Part shown: positions 1-14,349 of the stretch, piece by piece
How the letters are laid out: every line of letters begins with the position of its first letter
How positions within the stretch are numbered: the first letter of the stretch is position 1
IMG/VR virus record: IMGVR_UViG_2585427756_000019
Length of the DNA stretch: 14,349 nucleotides
Strand: one strand, 5' to 3'
From: a virus
Lineage: Duplodnaviria; Heunggongvirae; Uroviricota; Caudoviricetes
The notes under the pieces: generated by a model
Told to the model about the DNA's origin: nothing
The model's database searches: none
Seen by the model: the letters and a program-made list of their open reading frames with translations, nothing else
Position numbers and translations under genes: made by a program

Positions 1-176
1 TATACGCGCTGTATCTCTTTCTTCAGCCAGTCATCGCGCTGCGCACGGGCACTGCGTTTATCCGGATGATGTCGCTGTTGCTGACAGTGGTAATACGTTG
101 ACGGGGCAATATGCAGTTCGCTGCATAGCGGTCCGACCCCGTACTGCTCACGCAGCTTATCCAGCAGTGGCATCAT
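1..176 (-). CDS. IS3-family transposase OrfB, N-terminal part only (truncated by window edge)
   Basis: Minus-strand translation from 176 gives [58 protein letters not shown]..., a conserved IS3-family OrfB N-terminus. It is in the -1 frame overlapping the OrfA stop. Confidence 0.8.
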
Positions 177-499
177 TTTTTCCAGAGGCGGTCGAACTCC
201 GCCTTCGCAAAATAAGCGGAAGCCTGGCGAAGGATATCGTTACTGCGGCGCAGTTCACGATTTTCACGCTCCAGCTCTTTCAGACGCTGACGTTCAGCGG
301 TGGTGAGCCCTCCATCACCGCCCCCGGTATCCCGCTCATGCTGGCGAACCCAGACACGCAGAGTCTCCGGCGTACAGCCAATCTTTGGAGCAATGGAACA
401 AATTGTCGCCCATTGTGAGTCATATTCGCCCTGACTTTCCAGAACCATACGGACTGCCCGTTGACGGACTTCAGGGGAAAAACGAGTATTTTTAGTCAT
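173..499 (-). CDS. IS3-family transposase OrfA (helix-turn-helix and leucine-zipper subunit), IS629-like
   Basis: The 108-aa [59 protein letters not shown]... matches my recollection of IS629/IS1203 OrfA. It starts 5 bp inside the inverted repeat after an AGGA ribosome-binding site. Confidence 0.9.
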
Positions 500-553
500 C
501 CTGTTTACCTCTTTCTCAGGAAGTTTAGTCTCCAGGATTCCCGGGGCGGTTCA

Positions 554-3086: not shown

Positions 3087-3659
3087 TTACACTGACTGAC
3101 GTGATGCAAGTTGCGCACTTTTACGCGAAAAAATCATGTTCTGCGCAGGGGTGAATTTTTCACGGCTGTCATCCACCGAAGCCACGTCAGGCCTGAATCC
3201 GATGGTCGTTAAAATGTCGCTATCCTGTGCGGAATAATTAATTTTTTCACCCTTCGCAAGCCAGGACAGAAGGGCTTCACGCAGGGCATCTGTGGCACGC
3301 TGTATGGCACAGTTTCGGGCAATGGCCGTCAGCTCACTGTAGCCCATCAGCTCCGGTGCCAGTGCGGCCGCCAGTACTGTGCCGTGCTGCTGCATAAAAT
3401 CATTCAGCCGGTCGCGGATGCTGATGTGCTGAACGGCTTCATGCGAACGAATATAACGACCGGCGGCCTGATTCACCTGCCATTTTCTGACTTCGATAAT
3501 ATTGCGTAATTCGTCCAGGCGGCTGACGTTTCTGCCTTCTCCTGACAGAAGCCGCAGATATTCCTGTTCGGCCGCTGCCAGCTCATTTTTGCGTTGCAGC
3601 CATGCTGCTTTGTTATTCTGACAGGTGTCAAAGGCCTGCTGTAAGGCTGTGCTTTCCAT
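3087..3659 (-). CDS. psu: Polarity suppression protein Psu (capsid decoration / Rho antagonist), P4-like
   Basis: 190-aa ORF beginning MESTALQQAFDTCQNNKAAWLQRKNELAAAEQEYLRLL..., matching P4 Psu in length and recalled sequence. It is last in the sid-delta-psu operon. Confidence 0.9.
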   Translation of the reverse strand: MESTALQQAFDTCQNNKAAWLQRKNELAAAEQEYLRLLSGEGRNVSRLDELRNIIEVRKWQVNQAAGRYIRSHEAVQHISIRDRLNDFMQQHGTVLAAALAPELMGYSELTAIARNCAIQRATDALREALLSWLAKGEKINYSAQDSDILTTIGFRPDVASVDDSREKFTPAQNMIFSRKSAQLASRQSV

Positions 3660-3732: not shown

Positions 3733-4233
3733 TCATTCCAGACGCAGCGAATATGATTGTGTTTTTAACCGTACTGGCGGCAGTTCCTGTTTTTCATGCA
3801 GGCGTTCTGCCAGTTCGTCCGGCGTGACCGGGCGGACAATGAAGCGGGTGATGGTCTGAAGCGTTTTAAACACCAGACCACAGTCCGGATCCGTGCACAC
3901 ATAAAAACGCTCGGTGACTTCCTGAGACAGACGCCGCGATGTTCTTGACAGCGCAAGGCCTTTACATCTCCGACAACAATATCCGGTAACAAGCATTCTT
4001 TTCGGGCGTTTCATACTGCCGGAGGCTGACGTCAGTGAATCGCGGTATCTCTGTTTGCCTGAAATGTATTCCATTCCTGAATCTTTACTGTCAGAGAAAA
4101 AGCTTTCACTCGCTTCAAATGTCGCAGAGCAATAAATATTCCGGCACTGTGCAATCATTATCTTGGTGCCATCGTCCATGAAATGTGCGCGACGGGTGTG
4201 AGCAACATGTCCACACGACGGGCAGTAAATCAT
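3733..4233 (-). CDS. delta: Delta late-gene transcriptional activator (tandem Ogr-like zinc-finger domains), P4-like
   Basis: 166 aa with two Cys-rich Ogr-type modules (MIYCPSCGHVAHTRRAH...QCRNIYCSATF and ...YCCRRCKG...YVCTDPDCGLVF). Its start overlaps the sid stop (ATGA at 4230-4233). Confidence 0.9.
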   Translation of the reverse strand: MIYCPSCGHVAHTRRAHFMDDGTKIMIAQCRNIYCSATFEASESFFSDSKDSGMEYISGKQRYRDSLTSASGSMKRPKRMLVTGYCCRRCKGLALSRTSRRLSQEVTERFYVCTDPDCGLVFKTLQTITRFIVRPVTPDELAERLHEKQELPPVRLKTQSYSLRLE

Positions 4234-4964
4234 GACAGCAGTCCTCTGGCCTTAAGCTCTGCTCCCTGCTGGTCTATTTTGTCCTGCCACACCTTGCGCT
4301 GTGCCGGTGTGCCTGCCACCTCATAATCCATGTGCGGGAGTGTTGCCGCTGACAGTCCGGTCAGCCGGAGAACCGGCTCGCCGGTGAGGCTGATTTGCAT
4401 CTGTTTAATTTTCTGTTCCAGCGATGATTTCACCTGCTGCATGACAGCTTTATCGGGTGCGACGTAGCCCTGATGGCCGGTGGTGTTGGCGAGCGGATTT
4501 TCCTGTACCAGGATACTCAGATGCATTGCCCGGACAAGCGCCTCACAGGTTTCATTCAGGGCGTGTTCCAGCTCATGCTCTGCATACAGACTCAGAAGGT
4601 GATGATGTGCCTTCCGGTAGGCGGTGGCCGTGCTGTCACACGCCCCTTTCAGGCGTTCACGTTCGAAATTCAGCACCACGGCCAGATTGTCATATTCCTG
4701 TACCAGCTCCCGGCGTGCCACGCGCTCAATGTGGCGCTGTTTCAGCTCGTCGCTCAGGACACCACCGGCTGCACGAAAGGCCGTGCGCCAGTCGTCAGCG
4801 TCGTTTCCGTTGGCCTGCGTCAGCGCATTTTTTTCCTGCTCTGCCCGTTCAATGGCCGTGATGGTCTCATCCATCAGGCGGGCGTTCTCAAGATGAGCGG
4901 CTCTGGCCTTTTCCAGTTGTGCCAGTGCGGGTTGCAGATATTCAGGGATGGTGTTGTCAGACAT
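4230..4964 (-). CDS. sid: Sid external scaffold / capsid size determination protein, P4-like
   Basis: Start assigned to the second Met (MSDNTIPEYLQPALAQLEKARAAH...), which gives 244 aa as in P4 Sid and is preceded by GAGGAG at 7-nt spacing. The upstream ATG at 4982 overlaps that ribosome-binding site. Confidence 0.9.
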   Translation of the reverse strand: MSDNTIPEYLQPALAQLEKARAAHLENARLMDETITAIERAEQEKNALTQANGNDADDWRTAFRAAGGVLSDELKQRHIERVARRELVQEYDNLAVVLNFERERLKGACDSTATAYRKAHHHLLSLYAEHELEHALNETCEALVRAMHLSILVQENPLANTTGHQGYVAPDKAVMQQVKSSLEQKIKQMQISLTGEPVLRLTGLSAATLPHMDYEVAGTPAQRKVWQDKIDQQGAELKARGLLS

Positions 4965-5036
4965 TTTCCGGCTCCTCGTCACTTCAGGTTAAGAAAATTG
5001 TGACGTACACCGGACAACAACACGACGCATTGCAGA

Positions 5037-5237: not shown

Positions 5238-5516
5238 CGTTGATGGGCTTTTTGTGCTGTTTATTACTGTTTATTTTTATTAATTCGCCGGGAATGAATA
5301 AGAAAAAACGATTTGTATTTCACTATAAAAATTACGAATTGCTTTAAGTGGCTTTAAATGACTTTAAGTGGAGATGAACAAAAAACACACAAGCATTGTA
5401 AGGCTGCCGGAACAAATCCCCCCTGTTGCGTCTGCCAAAAATATTCACAAAATAAAGCGCTACCCGAAGCCGGACGGACTTATCCGGTGCTGTATGGACA
5501 TTAACGAGGTAGCCCG

Positions 5517-5783
5517 ATGCAAGCTGTTTTTTCTTCCCCGTCTCCCGCCCCTGTGACGCCACTGATGCCGCTGCCGGACATCACGCAGGAACGTTTTTTA
5601 CGTCTGCCGGAAGTAATGCACCTGTGCGGCCTGTCACGCTCGACCATCTATGAACTCATCCGTAAGGGGGAATTTCCGCCGCAGGTGAGTCTTGGCGGTA
5701 AAAATGTGGCCTGGCTGCACTCTGAAGTCACCGCATGGATGGCCGGGCGCATTGCCGGACGCAAACGGGGGTACGACGCATGA
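5517..5783 (+). CDS. vis: AlpA/Vis-family small DNA-binding protein (excisionase / transcriptional regulator), P4 orf88-like
   Basis: 88 aa with a GAGG ribosome-binding site 7 nt upstream. The core [47 protein letters not shown] is characteristic of the AlpA helix-turn-helix family. Confidence 0.8.
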
Positions 5784-5875
5784 TGATGCCCGCTCTGCAA
5801 AAACTCCCTTTTTCTGGCTTGCCTTTTTTCGGCATTTGCGGATATAGTTTTCCCGCTGCCGCAAAATCGGCAGCC

Positions 5876-6171
5876 GGGCGTGGAAACCCGAGCAATCTAA
5901 CGGCGACATATGACGCGCCATGCGTCTTTTTTTGTGTCGCAATCAACGCCACAGAGCGCCAGATTATGGTGTGGTGTGTGGTCAGTCGAGCAGATGGCAC
6001 TCCGTGCATCCTGCCCGCGTCCGCTCATTATGCCGCAGGGTCAATGGTAGCTCAGGCGGGGCAGCCTCCGGGCTGGCCGGTATCCGTTAGAGCCGGTATT
6101 TCCACCCCCGTCTGGGCTATCGCCATCGAGCGTGGAAACTCCGGCGATAGCGTAACCTGCTATCTAACGGA
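5876..6171 (+). ncRNA. cI: Putative P4-type RNA immunity leader (cI-like RNA region with seqA / seqB / seqC complementary elements); boundaries approximate
   Basis: Two similar segments containing CGTGGAAAC...ATCTAACGG (5876-5903 and 6129-6171) flank a segment CCGTTAGAGCCGGTATTTCCACCC (6085-6108) that is largely their reverse complement. This recalls the seqA-seqB-seqC arrangement of the P4 immunity region downstream of vis. Confidence 0.35.
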
Positions 6172-6181
6172 GGCTGCCATC

Positions 6182-6379
6182 ATGGCTACAACCCTTACCC
6201 CTTCACACCCTGAATTTGTCTTTGTGTTTGCGGCTGTCCGTCGCGCAGACCGTCATCCCCGTATCTGCATGCTTCGCACCGTCGCCGGTGATGAACGCAG
6301 TGCCCGCCGTTCCCTTGTCCGTGACTATGTGCTCTCCCTTGCTGCCCGTCTGCCGGTGGTGGAGGTGTCCCGTGCGTAA
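6182..6379 (+). CDS. Small hypothetical protein of the satellite left operon (position of P4 kil/eta); 65 aa
   Basis: ATG preceded by GGAGG at about 8 nt. The stop overlaps the start of the next ORF. The ORF-track 214-aa call (5735-6379) is an over-extension through GC-rich sequence. Confidence 0.4.
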
Positions 6380-6659
6380 TAAAAAAGCCCCTCAGACCGT
6401 CTCAGCACGTCATGACGCCCGTGAACACCTCAGCATTGAGGCTTACCATAAGCTCAACCGCGCCAGCGCCGTATCCCAGTTTGTTGGGGGTGATTTGATT
6501 CACCGTGAACTCTCCGGCCTGCATCAGCTCTACATTCCGCATATTTTCAGCTACCTGAATGAAGATATTGATTTTGTGCTGAATGAGCTGAAAGCCAAAG
6601 GCCTGTGCCGCGATTTTCTCGCCCAGCAGAAAGACCGGGGAGACAGGACGCATGTTTGA
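6372..6659 (+). CDS. Epsilon-like small protein (P4 helper-derepression protein position); 95 aa from a GTG start
   Basis: GTG start 4-5 nt after GGAGGTG. The 95-aa product ([28 protein letters not shown]...) agrees in length and position with my recollection of P4 epsilon. Its stop overlaps the next start. Confidence 0.5.
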
Positions 6660-7107
6660 TTTTCCCCAGCCCGGTGAGATTTACCGTTCTGCCGGTTTTC
6701 CCGATGTGGCCGTGGTCGGCATTCTGGAAGACGGTATTCCGTGGGAAATGCCGTACCGCTGCCCGGACATTGTCTGGAACCCGTACCGCCGTAAATTCAG
6801 TATCCTTGTGCGTATCCTCGCTGACGGGCGCACCACAGACATCCCGCTGGGGCGTTTTCTGCGGGAATTTACCTGTGACCGTCCTGACCTGTTTAAACGC
6901 AGCCCCGTAAACCGGCATGCGGTACTGAAAGAAATGGCCGGAGACCCGGAATTACAGAAATGGCGGGAGAAATATCTGGATATTTACCCGCAGGACACTG
7001 TTCCGGTCAGCCGGGCGGCACCGGTGGCGCGGGAATGGCGGGAAATTCCCCGCACGGAGCCTGACCCGGAAATCACCCCGGATAACAGTTACCGCAATTA
7101 TCTGTAA
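6652..7107 (+). CDS. Hypothetical protein, P4 orf151-like
   Basis: 151 aa, exactly the recalled P4 orf151 length. Start overlaps the upstream stop (operon coupling). Confidence 0.7.
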   Translation: MFDFPQPGEIYRSAGFPDVAVVGILEDGIPWEMPYRCPDIVWNPYRRKFSILVRILADGRTTDIPLGRFLREFTCDRPDLFKRSPVNRHAVLKEMAGDPELQKWREKYLDIYPQDTVPVSRAAPVAREWREIPRTEPDPEITPDNSYRNYL

Positions 7108-7242
7108 TTAAAAAACGACACCCGAAAAATTAAATGTGCGTATTCGCGCAGGGATACGCACGTCTTCAGGAGACGCAGATATGCCTTATCAGTTAATGCA
7201 ACCGGCACGGAATGCAGTCATCTGTCACAGGGAGGAAAACAA

Positions 7243-7563
7243 ATGAAAACACCCTTACCGCCCGTCTTACGCGCTGCCCTTTACCGTCGCGCTGTCGCCT
7301 GTGCCTGGCTGACCGTGTGCGAACGTCAGCACCGCTACCCGCATCTCACCCTTGAGTCACTGGAAGCGGCCATCGCCGCTGAGCTGGAAGGCTTTTATCT
7401 GCGCCAGCACGGTGAGGAAAAAGGGCGTCAGATAGCCTGTGCCCTGCTGGAAGATTTAATGGAATCCGGCCCCCTGAAGGCCGCGCCGTCGCTGTCCTTT
7501 CTCGGGCTGGTTGTGATGGATGAACTCTGTGCCCGTCACATAAAAGCGCCGGTACTGCACTGA
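7243..7563 (+). CDS. Hypothetical protein immediately upstream of alpha (P4 orf106-like)
   Basis: 106-aa ORF with GGGAGG ribosome-binding site about 8 nt upstream. Same strand and operon as alpha. Confidence 0.65.
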
Positions 7564-7577
7564 AGGAGAACAACACC

Positions 7578-9911
7578 ATGAAAATGAACGTAACCGCCAC
7601 CGTCAGCCATGCGCTCGGCCACTGGCCGCGTATTCTCCCGGCGCTGGGGATTCAGGTGCTGAAAAACCGTCATCAGCCCTGTCCGGTCTGTGGCGGGAGT
7701 GACCGCTTCCGTTTTGATGACAGGGAGGGGCGCGGCACCTGGTACTGCAATCAGTGTGGTGCCGGTGACGGCCTGAAACTGGTTGAAAAGGTGTTTGGTG
7801 TCTCCCCGTCCGACGCGGCCGCAAAGGTGGCTGCCGTGACCGGCAGCCTGCCCCCGGCTGACCCGGCAGTGACGGCTGCCGCCGGTGCTGAAACAGACGC
7901 TGCCCGGAAGAACGCCGCCGCACTGGCACAAACCCTGATGGCGAAAACCCGTCCCGGAACCGGTAACGCCTACCTGACCCGCAAGGGCTTTCCCGGCCGG
8001 GAATGCCGGATGCTGACCGGCACACACAGAGCCGGTGGCGTGAGCTGGCGTGCCGGTGACCTTGTGGTGCCACTGTATGACGACAGCGGCGAACTGGTTA
8101 ACCTTCAGTTAATCAGTGCTGACGGCCGTAAGCGCACCCTGAAAGGCGGACAGGTCAGGGGCACCTGTCACACCCTTGAAGGACAGAATCAGGCCGGAAA
8201 ACGTCTGTGGATAGCGGAGGGATACGCGACCGCACTTACCGTGCATCACCTGACCGGTGAAACGGTGATGGTGGCGCTTTCTTCCGTGAACCTCCTTTCT
8301 CTGGCCAGCCTTGCCCGGCAGAAGCATCCGGCCTGTCAGATTGTCCTTGCCGCAGACCGTGACCTCAGCGGTGACGGCCAGAAAAAAGCCGCCGCAGCCG
8401 CAGATGCGTGTGAAGGTGTTGTTGCCCTGCCGCCGGTCTTCGGTGACTGGAATGATGCCTTCACGCAGTACGGCGGGGAGGCCACCCGTAAGGCCATTTA
8501 CGATGCCATCCGGCCACCGGCTGAAAGCCCGTTCGACACCATGAGTGAAGCGGAGTTTTCCGCCATGAGTACCAGCGAAAAGGCCATGCGTATCTATGAG
8601 CATTACGGCGAGGCGCTCGCGGTCGATGCCAACGGCCAGCTTCTGTCCCGCTATGAAAATGGTGTCTGGAAGGTGCTGCCGCCACAGGACTTTGCCCGGA
8701 ATGTGGCCGGGCTGTTTCAGCGGCTGCGCGCGCCGTTCTCCTCCGGGAAGGTGGCCTCCGTGGTGGACACCCTGAAGCTGATTATTCCGCAGCAGGAAGC
8801 CCCCTCCCGCTGCCTGATTGGCTTTCGTAACGGCGTGCTCGACACGCAGAACGGCACGTTCCACCCGCACAGTCCGTCACACTGGATGCGTACCCTGTGC
8901 GATGTGGATTTCACCCCGCCGGTGGAAGGGGAAACGCTGGAAACCCACGCCCACGCGTTCTGGCGCTGGCTTGACCGTGCCGCCGGTGGCCGTGCGGAAA
9001 AACGCGACGTGATTCTGGCCGCACTGTTTATGGTGCTGGCAAACCGCTATGACTGGCAGCTCTTTCTGGAGGTGACCGGTCCCGGCGGCAGCGGCAAAAG
9101 TATCATGGCCGAAATAGCCACCCTGCTGGCCGGGGAGGATAACGCCACGTCGGCCACCATTGAGACGCTGGAATCCCCGCGTGAACGTGCCGCGTTAACT
9201 GGCTTCTCACTGATACGCCTGCCGGACCAGGAAAAATGGAGCGGCGACGGAGCCGGACTCAAGGCCATCACCGGCGGCGATGCAGTGTCCGTTGACCCGA
9301 AATACCGGGATGCGTACTCCACGCATATCCCGGCGGTGATTCTGGCCGTGAACAATAACCCGATGCGCTTCACCGACCGCAGCGGCGGCGTGTCACGCCG
9401 GCGGGTGATTATTCACTTCCCGGAACAGATAGCCCCGCAGGAGCGCGACCCGCAGCTTAAGGACAAAATCACCCGCGAGCTGGCGGTCATCGTGCGTCAC
9501 CTGATGCAGAAGTTCAGCGACCCGATGCTCGCCCGGTCACTGCTTCAGTCCCAGCAGAACTCAGACGAGGCACTGAACATCAAACGGGATGCCGACCCGA
9601 CGTTTGATTTTATCGGCTATCTGGAAACCCTGCCGCAGACCAGCGGCATGTATATGGGGAACGCCAGTATCATCCCGCGTAATTACCGTAAATACCTCTA
9701 TCACGCCTATCTGGCCTACATGGAGGCAAACGGCTACCGGAATGTACTCAGTCTGAAAATGTTCGGGCTGGGGCTGCCGGTGATGCTGAAGGAATACGGA
9801 CTGAATTACGAGAAGCGCCATACCAAACAGGGGATACAGACCAACCTGACACTGAAAGAGGAAAGCTACGGCGACTGGCTGCCAAAATGTGACGCCCCTG
9901 CAACAACCTGA
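7578..9911 (+). CDS. alpha: Alpha protein: bifunctional primase / SF3 helicase with C-terminal origin-binding domain, P4-like
   Basis: 777 aa, the P4 alpha length. N-terminal zinc-binding motif CPVCGGSDRFRFDDREGRGTWYCNQCG, Walker A GPGGSGKS at LEVTGPGGSGKSIMAEIA, AAGGAG ribosome-binding site upstream. Confidence 0.95.
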   Translation: MKMNVTATVSHALGHWPRILPALGIQVLKNRHQPCPVCGGSDRFRFDDREGRGTWYCNQCGAGDGLKLVEKVFGVSPSDAAAKVAAVTGSLPPADPAVTAAAGAETDAARKNAAALAQTLMAKTRPGTGNAYLTRKGFPGRECRMLTGTHRAGGVSWRAGDLVVPLYDDSGELVNLQLISADGRKRTLKGGQVRGTCHTLEGQNQAGKRLWIAEGYATALTVHHLTGETVMVALSSVNLLSLASLARQKHPACQIVLAADRDLSGDGQKKAAAAADACEGVVALPPVFGDWNDAFTQYGGEATRKAIYDAIRPPAESPFDTMSEAEFSAMSTSEKAMRIYEHYGEALAVDANGQLLSRYENGVWKVLPPQDFARNVAGLFQRLRAPFSSGKVASVVDTLKLIIPQQEAPSRCLIGFRNGVLDTQNGTFHPHSPSHWMRTLCDVDFTPPVEGETLETHAHAFWRWLDRAAGGRAEKRDVILAALFMVLANRYDWQLFLEVTGPGGSGKSIMAEIATLLAGEDNATSATIETLESPRERAALTGFSLIRLPDQEKWSGDGAGLKAITGGDAVSVDPKYRDAYSTHIPAVILAVNNNPMRFTDRSGGVSRRRVIIHFPEQIAPQERDPQLKDKITRELAVIVRHLMQKFSDPMLARSLLQSQQNSDEALNIKRDADPTFDFIGYLETLPQTSGMYMGNASIIPRNYRKYLYHAYLAYMEANGYRNVLSLKMFGLGLPVMLKEYGLNYEKRHTKQGIQTNLTLKEESYGDWLPKCDAPATT

Positions 9912-10570: not shown

Positions 10571-13500
10571 TCAGAACGACCAGTTCACACCAGCTACCGC
10601 GTTCCACGGGGATTCCACACCGGCACTATGGCTATACCCCACCCCAAGATGCCCGCTTAACGTACTGCTGAATGAGGCTTTAATACCTGCCTGGTATATT
10701 CCACGTCTGCCCGACAAATAATTGACGAAATTACCGTCACTATTCACTTTCACCCGGTTATCATCGACAAATTCTTTGCGCACAGCCGCCTTCAGCCACG
10801 GCTCAACTTCCATACCGTTCCCCAGACGCATGTTGTAACTCAGCGTTGCGCCCAGTTCACGATATATACTGCGGGTATCGACTGATTTCGATTTCATGCC
10901 ATTGGATAAATGATATTCGGGGTTATCAGCGGTGAACCCCGTTAACGATGCATACGGCGTCAGGTTCCAGTTACCATCGGTAAATCGCATCCCGGTTTCA
11001 ATGTGACCGCCCAGCCCGTTGCTGTGGTAACTGCCATTGGCGGCTCCACCGCTGCTCATTTTACCTGCTACGTTACTTTTAAAACGGTTCAGCTTCACGA
11101 CACCGTCCAGATAGAAACCACTTTCATGTTCCCAACTGGCATAGCCGCCCAGAGAATAACTGCCCACACTGCCATGTCCTCCGCGATCAAAACCGATATG
11201 TGAATGGGAATAGCCCATAAAAGCGCCTAGCGTGGTAATTCCTTCAGGAATATCATTACGGCTGTCGATCCCCACTGTCATTCCGGTCAGCGTCTGCTCA
11301 AACCCGGCACCCGCATCGGTGGTGACATTATTACGGGTGTTATACGTCGCCCCCCAGACATTATTGTTGTGTGGACTCGCTTTCATTATGTTCAACCGCT
11401 CGCGAATACTGTTTAGCTCAGCATCAAATACCAACGGTAATGTTGCTGCCATATTGAGTACGGCTGCCGTAGAAGGCGTAATGCGTTTCTCCGGAACGGG
11501 TGTCGGCGTTGGATCGGGAGTAGGGTCTGGTTTTGGATTTGGGTCTGGCTTTGGATCGGGTTTTGGGTCTGGCTTTGGATTTGGGATGGGGTCCGGGTTG
11601 GGTTTGACATCATTGGTCAGGTTCCAGTTGCTGTTGCCGTCACTTTTCAGGACATACTCATAGGTCCCAAGATCAACGAAACCGCCGGTATTGCCCAGCG
11701 TAAACGAAGCATCCCCTCCCCCTGTTTTCACCAGCGTCATCGCGTCGTCAGACTGTGGGCTGACGCCGGTATCCTGAACAAAGATTTTAAAATTACCAGT
11801 GGCGTTGTTGTTGACGACCAGTTGATCGCCCCGGGAGCCTGCAACGTTGGTATGCAGGTAGAAATTACCGCTACCGGAAAGTTCATTGGTTGTCAGCGTA
11901 TTGTAGATACCGTTAGTTGTGGCAGGCGCTGCTGTTTGTGCTGACAAATAAACATCACCGTCGTTGAGTAGCAAACTGTTTACTCTATATTCGCAGTTGC
12001 TGGTACCTGCACAGGAATTATTGCTGTTAAGCCAGACACTGCCCCGGCTGGCAGCCGTCAGGTCGGCAAGCGTGGTATCGACGCCATTTCCCAGAGTCAA
12101 TGTCGCGCTATCGGTAATCCGGACCGCCCCTTCGAGTTTAACTGGCGTAACATTATCCCGTGGCGTCATTAACGACAGGCTTCCTGTCGCGCCACTGACC
12201 GATGCATCCGCCAGCGTACCTGCGTAGACGATTGCCGTACCGCCAGCGACCTGGAGATCTTCTGCCCGGGCCAGAGCCTGAAACTCATCTTTTGACCGCC
12301 CAAGGGTATATTGCCCGCCAGAGTTAACCTTTGTGGCGGAGTCCTGACCCAGGTTTTGCATTGCCCCACCCTTGCCAACCGTGGAGTCGCGAGCTTCGGT
12401 ACCTGCTAATACCAATAAATTACCGCCATTTTCCAGCAACATATTGGTCGCTAAATTGCCGGAAATGGAAAAAGTACCGTACTGGTGAGTACCGCTGATT
12501 TCAATACCGTTAGCCGTGCTCGTCTGGAGAGCGGCACCGCTGTTCTGGACGATATCTGTCGCTTTGCCATTATCGTTGACTGTCAGCGTACCGCCTTCAT
12601 TGATCTTTGTTTTTATTGCCTCTCCGTTAGCTGAAACTGTTTGTATTCCGCCGTCGTTAATTGTTGTCTCATTCGCCACACCCTCGACAATTTGTTCACC
12701 GCCGGTGAGCGTCGTGCCTGTCGCAGTGGCTTTTGTTTTGACGATCTCCCGTCCGCCCATATTGACCTGTGTTTTGTCAGAAGAGGTGTCTGACTCCACG
12801 GTTAACACGCCGCCATTTGCCAGCAGGATATTGTTCGCCGCACCCTGCTCGATGCTGAACGCGACGCCATCCGCGCGTGTTCCTGTGACCCGCGTCGCCC
12901 TGGTGGTTGCAACCAAAGCGCCCTGGCTACTCTGCTGTATCCCCGTTGCGCTGCCTTTCTCCCGCACATCGAGTGTGCCGCCGTCATTAAGCACCGAGTT
13001 TTCAGCCAGACCGCCCTCATTAACTACCTGTGAACCCCCATTAATAATGGAACCTTCCGCTGTCCCGTTTGCCATAATTTGTTGTAGGCCAGAGACGATA
13101 TCGGTATTGATTGCCTTACCATAATTCTGAACGGTTTGCGTGCCACCATTGATGTGTGTTTTCTCTGTTGACCCACCATCAACAATTTGTTCACCACTTT
13201 CGATATTTGCTTCAGTGGCTAAACCATATACCGTTTGCTTGCCACCTTTGATATTTGCTTTATCAGAAGTGGCACTGGCATATATTGTTTGGGTGCCAGC
13301 ACTATTGAGTACAGTGCCAACATCTTTTCCATAAACATCCATTTTGCCGTTGGCATTAATAATCGTGTCAACTGCGCGGGAACCAGTGACGACTGTTAAT
13401 GAGCCAGCGTTTTCCAGCACTACATTTTTAGCTTCTGAATTCCTGATGTAGAAAGCATCACCATAACTGTTGGTTCCTTCGATAAGTGTTCCGGAGGTCG

Positions 13501-13718
13501 TGGAAGCAATTAATGCGCCGCCGGATTGTTGCTCAACATGCTTAGCCTCACCACCGTCCTGAACCTCCAGAACGCCGCCATTATTAAGTCTGGTGCTATC
13601 TGTTTTAGCCTCCTTCTGGACAATCAGCTTACCGCCAGTATCAATGGTAGTATTTTTCGCCGAGGTTTTAGCCACTACCGTCAGTTCGCCGGTATTTTCC
13701 AGCACAACATAATTAGCC
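10571..13718 (-). pseudogene. AIDA-I/Ag43-type autotransporter adhesin (beta-helical passenger, Pro-rich linker, C-terminal beta-barrel); 5' end removed by the IS10 insertion
   Basis: C-terminus ...NAVAGVNWSF is an autotransporter barrel signature. Linker PNPDPIPNPKPDPKPDPKPDPNPKPDPTPDPTPTPVP. The passenger has Gly-rich beta-helix repeats. The apparent N-terminus MCIHLNLMIFTKIIRGF is encoded by the IS10 end and there is no signal peptide, so the ORF is a fusion artefact. Confidence 0.85.
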
Positions 13719-14349
13719 CTGATGAATCCCCTAATGATTTTGGTAAAAATCATTAAGTTAAGGTGGATACACATCTTGTCATATGATCAAATGGTTTCGC
13801 GAAAAATCAATAATCAGACAACAAGATGTGCGAACTCGATATTTTACACGACTCTCTTTACCAATTCTGCCCCGAATTACACTTAAAACGACTCAACAGC
13901 TTAACGTTGGCTTGCCACGCCTTACTTGACTGTAAAACTCTCACTCTTACCGAACTTGGCCGTAACCTGCCAACCAAAGCGAGAACAAAACATAACATCA
14001 AACGAATCGACCGATTGTTAGGTAATCGTCACCTCCACAAAGAGCGACTCGCTGTATACCGTTGGCATGCTAGCTTTATCTGTTCGGGCAATACGATGCC
14101 CATTGTACTTGTTGACTGGTCTGATATTCGTGAGCAAAAACGACTTATGGTATTGCGAGCTTCAGTCGCACTACACGGTCGTTCTGTTACTCTTTATGAG
14201 AAAGCGTTCCCGCTTTCAGAGCAATGTTCAAAGAAAGCTCATGACCAATTTCTAGCCGACCTTGCGAGCATTCTACCGAGTAACACCACACCGCTCATTG
14301 TCAGTGATGCTGGCTTTAAAGTGCCATGGTATAAATCCGTTGAGAAGCT
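13719..14349 (+). mobile_element. IS10 (IS4 family; Tn10-type), outside end plus 5' half of the transposase, continues past window end
   Basis: From 13719 the sequence reads CTGATGAATCCCCTAATGATTTTGGTAAAAATCATTAAG..., the IS10 terminal sequence as I recall it. Confidence 0.9.
13826..14349 (+). CDS. IS10 transposase, N-terminal part (open to window end)
   Basis: ATG at 13826 translates to MCELDILHDSLYQFCPELHLKRLNSLTLACHALLDCKTLTLTELGRNLPTKARTK..., the IS10 transposase N-terminus. Not listed in the ORF track because there is no stop in the window. Confidence 0.9.
   Translation, partial: MCELDILHDSLYQFCPELHLKRLNSLTLACHALLDCKTLTLTELGRNLPTKARTKHNIKRIDRLLGNRHLHKERLAVYRWHASFICSGNTMPIVLVDWSDIREQKRLMVLRASVALHGRSVTLYEKAFPLSEQCSKKAHDQFLADLASILPSNTTPLIVSDAGFKVPWYKSVEK

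Follow-up and report, generated by a model that had tools for sequence, protein, structure and literature searches.

A stretch of 14,349 nucleotides (IMG/VR record IMGVR_UViG_2585427756_000019, here called the window) carries, between coordinates 5876 and 6171 and in the sequence surrounding them, what is very probably an RNA-based immunity module belonging to a P4-like satellite prophage in E. coli. At the sequence level the module has every feature looked for in P4-type RNA immunity, and its six pairing blocks differ from those of P4 in a coordinated way, from which a different immunity specificity is predicted.

Organization of the immunity region

The gene order of the window is that of P4, with psu, delta, sid and vis followed by the module and then by kil, epsilon, orf151, orf106 and alpha. 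Genes psu (3087-3659), delta (3733-4233) and sid (4230-4982) are on the - strand, the last being named by its position and by the P4 gene order, without a family match. The vis/orf88 gene (5517-5783, +) codes for an AlpA-type HTH protein equivalent to P4 ORF88 (Pfam Phage_AlpA, 7e-21). On the other side lie epsilon (6372-6659), orf151 (6652-7107), orf106 (7243-7563) and the alpha primase-helicase gene (7578-9911), all on the + strand; together they form the putatively controlled operon (6372-9911), with matches to Pfam Derepression, Zn_Ribbon_Prim, Toprim and D5_N. An earlier note on this DNA, made from the sequence alone, had placed a possible immunity module after vis and ahead of the small ORFs and alpha, and it does lie there, between vis/orf88 and kil, epsilon, orf151, orf106 and alpha.

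A promoter scan identified a sigma-70 promoter at 5819-5848 (+; TTGCCT, an 18-nt spacer and TATAGT) as the sole promoter-like site within 5400-6700. It is the predicted equivalent of P4 PLE, from which it differs by one base, and its -10 element is the one marked '-10 consensus' in P4 record X02534. Next comes an IsrK-like short leader RNA (5855-5932, +) consisting of two hairpins, a linker and a terminator, and containing seqA. The Rfam isrK model (RF01394) is matched here from end to end with 75.4 bits (gathering threshold 50), and the c4-a1b1 target model (RF03163) scores 51.9 bits at 5842-5894 (+), also above its gathering threshold. SeqA (5880-5903, +), recovered through inverted repeats I2 and I11, has an a-block GTGGAAA (5880-5886) and a b-block TCTAACGG (5896-5903); in the predicted fold of the first 78 nt, the a-block occupies the loop of the second hairpin and the b-block is in the single strand after it. 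Directly 3' of seqA, and making up the 3' end of the isrK model, a terminator scan found an intrinsic terminator (5912-5935, +) with a 6-bp G+C-rich stem (5912-5926) and a run of seven T, by its position the equivalent of P4 t1. In P4-like phages the seqA RNA has been identified with IsrK and the CI RNA with C4, and CI-dependent termination has been described (PMC4825925; PMC3632133).

A spacer of 107 nt separates the leader terminator from the CI RNA gene (6040-6127, +; structured core approximately 6046-6125), which belongs to the C4 antisense RNA family and matches the full-length Rfam model (RF01695) with 76.2 bits (gathering threshold 45). The three RNA families isrK, c4-a1b1 and C4 are thus all present in the P4 arrangement, on the + strand. 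The predicted fold of CI has a long stalk, a minor hairpin, a major hairpin and a 3' CCA, with a minimum free energy of -48.1 kcal/mol (z -4.7) that none of 200 shuffles equalled. A stalk ending in CCA is expected for an RNase P substrate, and both CI and C4 are such substrates (PMC5499578). Outside the blocks the CI sequence is that of P4, the sole difference being at 6039, just upstream. SeqB (6084-6105, +) is placed by the Rfam structure line, the fold, and inverted repeats I1, I2, I8 and I11; its b' block CCGTTAGA (6084-6091) is in the loop of the major hairpin and its a' block TTTCCAC (6099-6105) is in unpaired sequence 3' of the hairpin.

SeqC (6132-6170, +) repeats the a-block GTGGAAA (6132-6138) and the b-block TCTAACGG (6163-6170), the two blocks here being set apart by an inserted 19-nt hairpin (6146-6164), with a CCGGC at 6141-6145 that gives extra pairing. 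Its b-block overlaps the Shine-Dalgarno sequence GGAGG (6169-6173) of kil (6183-6379, +, ATG at 6183), a gene for a 65-aa Icd-like protein (NCBIfam phage_ICD_like) that by analogy with P4 would be the first translated from PLE transcripts. In the free mRNA the GGAG of this Shine-Dalgarno sequence (6169-6172) is predicted to be paired with CUCC (6139-6142) just 3' of the seqC a-block, with a probability of being unpaired close to zero, so that an opening event may be needed for kil translation even without CI. Inside kil, at 6182-6338 (+), is the equivalent of the Rho-dependent terminator timm, recognized by homology, with two mismatches, to the P4 fragment at X51522 8365-8209 (PMC3177188). The terminator functions of t1 and timm are predictions here, from sequence and homology.

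All three of the elements described in the earlier note, two similar ones around a reverse-complementary centre, were recovered, as seqA, seqB and seqC. The complementarity had been called imperfect, which is true only of the stretch between the blocks, where seqB forms a hairpin stem of CI. Within the two blocks it is perfect over 7 and 8 bp for both targets, giving 15 bp with seqA and the same with seqC, or 30 pairs in total. Duplex prediction, suggested at the time as a check, gave stable pairing of seqB with seqA (-32.9 kcal/mol, z -4.4; equalled by none of 1000 dinucleotide-shuffled targets) and with seqC (-31.9 kcal/mol, z -3.1; 7 of 1000 as good). When both strands of the whole window were scanned, seqC was the best + strand partner of the seqB core, and only the trivial antisense of seqB and one - strand site near 13704-13714 scored better. 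Alignment to the P4 immunity region, the other comparison suggested, is ungapped with 94.8% identity between 5780-6400 and X51522 8767-8147. The P4-type reading as seqA / cI-seqB / seqC is borne out by Rfam, the alignment to P4, the gene order and the intermolecular covariation described below, all of which agree.

The strength of the isrK match (75.4 bits), and the fact that this RNA has its own terminator, raise the question of whether the 5855-5932 RNA acts in trans like IsrK of Gifsy-1, opening the read-through transcript for the first ORF, or as a decoy that titrates CI. The IsrK mechanism has been described and the homology noted (PMC4825925), and in S. Typhi a requirement for the IsrK-like elements of P4-like prophages has been reported (PMC3632133). 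Action in trans would also fit the almost fully paired kil Shine-Dalgarno sequence, and the short RNA, having the a- and b-blocks of seqC, would compete for CI. However, the seqA and seqC blocks are identical and not complementary, so the short RNA is unable to pair directly with seqC, and although the structural homology to the isrK model is present, a repeat search found in 5855-5932 no complementarity to the kil ribosome-binding region beyond that mediated by CI, the mark sought for opening in trans. We consider either role unlikely, and it would add to, not replace, the CI-mediated immunity that we favour.

Predicted specificity and its variation among relatives

The window differs from P4 at 32 positions over 621 nt, and 18 of the 32 fall inside the six blocks, which together span 45 nt (binomial P = 5e-13). 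All 18 are compensatory. The a-block of seqA and seqC is GTGAGAA in P4 and GTGGAAA in the window, with a' in seqB changing from TTCTCAC to TTTCCAC; the b-block is TTCACAGG in P4 and TCTAACGG in the window, with b' changing from CCTGTGAA to CCGTTAGA. This coordination of the block differences is a point that had been missed in the earlier note. Because the differences lie in the pairing blocks and are compensatory, the window copy is a putative alternative specificity allele and not a degraded copy of P4, and because the block changes are coordinated in three elements, we expect the prophage and P4 to be heteroimmune. The window copy should confer immunity against itself but none against P4, and P4 in turn should lack immunity to the window copy.

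Cognate duplexes are predicted at -26 to -32 kcal/mol for the window and P4 alike, as compared with -12.7 kcal/mol for window CI with P4 seqA and -21.8 kcal/mol for window CI with P4 seqC. Most of the latter value comes from the conserved CCGGC core, which is a hairpin stem in folded CI. Given this residual pairing there may be partial cross-immunity between the window element and P4. In P4 genetics, single mismatches already weaken immunity.

Relatives were assembled from 15 E. coli loci picked across the identity range, at least 120 metagenome loci and at least 120 IMG/VR loci, the latter two sets being found with a CI-backbone pattern validated on the window and on known loci. The three elements were parsed in 229 loci (among L124-L378). 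All 15 of the E. coli loci have isrK and C4 matches in the same order, and all 30 pairs are kept in 219 of the 229 parsed loci. These 229 contain at least six a-alleles, at least 14 b-alleles, at least 32 target combinations and at least 35 CI types; as the pattern fixes part of the CI backbone the sample is biased, and the allele counts are lower bounds and the frequencies not population estimates.

Permuting CI among the 46 distinct types lowers the mean number of pairs from 29.2 to 21.7 of 30 (sd 0.46), with a maximum of 23.3 in 2000 permutations. Among 93 distinct rows, double compensatory changes are found at 12 of the 15 pair positions for seqA and again for seqC, and pairing in register is 98-100%, versus 33-58% with the partner slid by one to three columns. 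In the covariation with CI, seqA is 98-99% paired, as are 100% of the cells in the seqC a-block and 98.7% of those in its b-block. Pairing of seqB with seqA and with seqC alike is thus strongly supported by comparison among relatives.

Four further loci in the sample are of the window type (GTGGAAA with TCTAACGG) and fully matched, and 43 E. coli records match window 5840-6185 with at least 99% identity. There are also mixed types in E. coli, with locus L124 combining the P4 a-block with the window b-block and L125 the window a-block with the P4 b-block. The immunity blocks are modular in their distribution, and b-alleles are shared inside two groups of a-alleles, GTGAGAA/GTGGAAA and GTAGGAA/TTGGCGT/TTTGCAG.

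Approximately 4% of the loci are chimeric (L128, which is E. coli O145:H28 RM12581, and L145, L169, L202, L224, L235, L263, L338, L375 and L377), having either seqA (8 of the 10) or seqC mismatched to the resident CI. Locus L235, for example, has the CI and seqC of the window together with a P4-type seqA. The chimeras look as if they had arisen by recombination between seqA and cI.

We regard it as an evenly balanced proposition that immunity in P4-like satellites follows a combinatorial two-block 'address code', whose blocks are kept in agreement at three sites and shuffled by recombination while the leader DNA remains an open reading frame (eta). If each combination of a- and b-blocks were a separate heteroimmunity group, the satellites would form, at the level of populations, a system of dozens of types that do not repress one another. 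The block sequences provide a simple scheme for typing P4-like satellites into predicted immunity groups, which bears on their ability to coexist in a host or to displace one another. No survey of re-assorting a/b immunity alleles was found in the literature searched, and the subject is possibly unsurveyed; a large census of P4-like elements makes no mention of the immunity RNA (PMC8628076).

Overlapping coding, proposed regulation and state of the prophage

A long ORF of 199 aa in the kil frame (5780-6379, +), present in the ORF list and called by PGAP in relatives, runs across seqA, t1, CI and seqC from an ATG that overlaps the stop codon of vis (ATGA, 5780-5783). It probably corresponds to P4 'eta', and we take it to fit the account of eta (Forti 1999) in which late-promoter transcripts translated through the leader escape immunity. 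In 98% of 193 distinct leaders the kil frame stays open beyond the PLE start, which the other two frames do in 0.5% and 1.6%. Although the spacers vary from 62 to 108 nt, the interval between this start and the kil ATG is divisible by three (0 mod 3), and the indels are multiples of three, in 187 of the 193. The openness of the kil frame and the sizes of the indels point to a leader DNA that is under a coding constraint as well as an RNA-pairing constraint.

In most of the E. coli relatives (L124-L131, L133-L136) PGAP places a 182-199-aa 'host cell division inhibitor Icd-like protein' over the RNAs, and at some other loci an 'ash family protein' is annotated across them; the RefSeq records of the same E. 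coli relatives (L124-L131, L133-L136) contain no ncRNA annotation over the CI or IsrK-like RNAs. The overlapping eta frame explains the long 'Icd-like protein' of RefSeq, although the NCBIfam phage_ICD_like match is restricted to aa 161-208 of the 199-aa ORF, its last 48 aa. In this way RefSeq-style annotation hides the immunity RNAs beneath an over-long 'Icd-like protein' CDS.

It could be argued from these annotations (a 199-aa 'Icd-like protein' in RefSeq and a 137-aa 'cI/ash' protein in old P4 records), from the PGAP calls in most E. coli relatives and from the conserved frame with its indels in multiples of three that the region is simply protein-coding and that the repeats are incidental to the coding sequence. 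However, the Icd domain accounts for just the end of the ORF, the same DNA is well above threshold for three structured-RNA families, and complementary pair changes across three separate sites are not predicted by coding constraint, so that we give this explanation hardly any credence. More plausibly, the ORF and the RNA module coexist, with eta as an overlapping further layer whose translation is confined to late-promoter transcripts.

Sequence, structure, homology and covariation bear on the module directly, and its activity is inferred from the genetics and biochemistry of P4, in which CI is said to act at seqA/t1 and seqC/t4, to block kil and to involve timm (work of Sabbattini in 1995, Forti in 1995 and 1999, and Briani in 2000). 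By this analogy, the constitutive promoter at 5819-5848 would drive transcription of the leader, from which the CI RNA (core approximately 6046-6125) would be excised, with RNase P cutting on the 5' side of the tRNA-like, CCA-ending stalk. CI would present two recognition blocks, one (b') in the major loop and the other (a') immediately 3' of that loop, and their pairing with seqA on the nascent leader would increase termination at t1 (5912-5935), CI thereby being autoregulated. Pairing of CI with seqC over the kil ribosome-binding site would lead to termination near seqC (P4 t4), and with kil translation prevented Rho could terminate at timm inside kil. As a result the epsilon-alpha replication operon would be off in the lysogen, and likewise in any superinfecting element that shares its specificity. 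Late-promoter transcripts from upstream, being translated through the whole leader as the eta ORF, would escape this control. The analogy draws in part on published CI-dependent termination in P4-like phages (PMC4825925).

The t1 stem has a probability of 0.84-0.97 in nascent-RNA ensembles without CI, and equilibrium folding therefore does not explain an enhancement of t1 by pairing. Removal of an antiterminator by CI was considered as a mechanism at t1 and rejected, masking of the blocks raising the probability of the t1 hairpin only from 0.84 to 0.95.

Insertion sequences are found at both ends of the window. At the left an IS3-family frameshift pseudoknot (ALIL, 120 bits) at 102-218 (-) marks the IS, and window 1-542 is absent from the closest relatives; the integrase ORF nearby (591-1253, +) has the C-terminal half only (NCBIfam profile positions 182-394 of 413). 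At the right an IS10 RNA-OUT (98.8 bits) at 13764-13833 (-) abuts the 5' end of an autotransporter gene (10571-13774, -; 1067 aa, AIDA/pertactin, ypjA/EhaD-like). Homology to other strains ends at 13718, and the IS10 insertion may thus have cut the start or the promoter of the autotransporter gene. A 545-aa ORF (1250-2887, +) between the integrase fragment and psu had no match in Pfam, PADLOC or NCBIfam. It is a candidate uncharacterised cargo or defence gene, and the integrase-psu interval is the position of the anti-phage hotspot of P4-like elements (Rousset et al. 2022; PMC9122126).

The prophage is judged from its sequence to be partly decayed. With a truncated integrase next to the IS3-family element at one end and IS10 at the other, the module may be a silent relic, that is, intact in sequence as a result of recent acquisition and yet silent or without a role in a defective, IS-flanked prophage. 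On the other hand, promoter, seqA, t1, CI and seqC are intact with 30 of 30 pairs preserved, psu, delta, sid, vis, epsilon and alpha are full length, and the same 13-kb segment is present at 99.9% identity in other strains. Moreover, P4 kil is toxic, and loss of immunity would probably be harmful while alpha and kil are intact. A relic is accordingly quite improbable to our minds, and we prefer a module that would still confer immunity.

Comparison with known immunity systems

IsrK/STnc1160 of Gifsy-1 (Hershko-Shalev et al. 2016, PMC4825925) resembles the window in having a short terminated isoform and a read-through transcript, with a C4-like processed RNA downstream. However, it sits in a lambdoid prophage, where it trans-activates translation of orf45-anrP and hence the antiterminator AntQ (PMC4825925), and it is not reported as an immunity switch.

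Phages phiKO2 (in CI and part of the leader) and PY54 match the window CI with 77-78% identity, next to Icd-like genes, and N15 was not among the phage-record BLAST matches. The CI/c4-like RNAs of N15, phiKO2 and PY54 control an anti-repressor or anti-immunity operon and not satellite replication. On E. coli plasmids (H76-H93) there are 993 places with CI/C4-like sequences, annotated 'ash family protein', that share 71-81% identity with all or part of window 6041-6185; these are presumably c4-type modules of P1-like or other plasmids.

In P1 and P7 the difference in immunity reflects compensatory changes in c4 and its targets. The immI region of these phages (Citron and Schuster 1990; Rfam clan CL00128) encodes the c4 antisense RNA and its targets a1b1 and a2b2, with icd and ant lying downstream. 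It shares with the window the RNA family, the recognition by two blocks (a' and b'), one target on each side of the RNA gene, and a downstream target that overlaps the ribosome-binding site of an Icd-like gene; RNase P processing is common to C4 and CI RNAs (PMC5499578). In contrast, P1 uses its switch to control the antirepressor Ant, by repressing icd translation and through polarity, whereas the output in the window would be the satellite replication operon, and the window, unlike P1, has an intrinsic terminator (t1) directly after the upstream target.

The closest counterpart is P4, whose immunity region was reportedly studied by Deho, Ghisotti, Forti, Sabbattini and Briani between 1992 and 2002. 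It is arranged as PLE - seqA - t1 - cI/seqB - seqC - kil/eta - timm, gives the same Rfam matches, and has the promoter, terminator, CI backbone, kil and flanking genes in common with the window. A classic and well-studied antisense-RNA immunity switch, in itself offering little that is new, is thus present and intact in sequence in an E. coli prophage. The module is of a known kind, and what is new in it relative to P4 is its predicted specificity allele.
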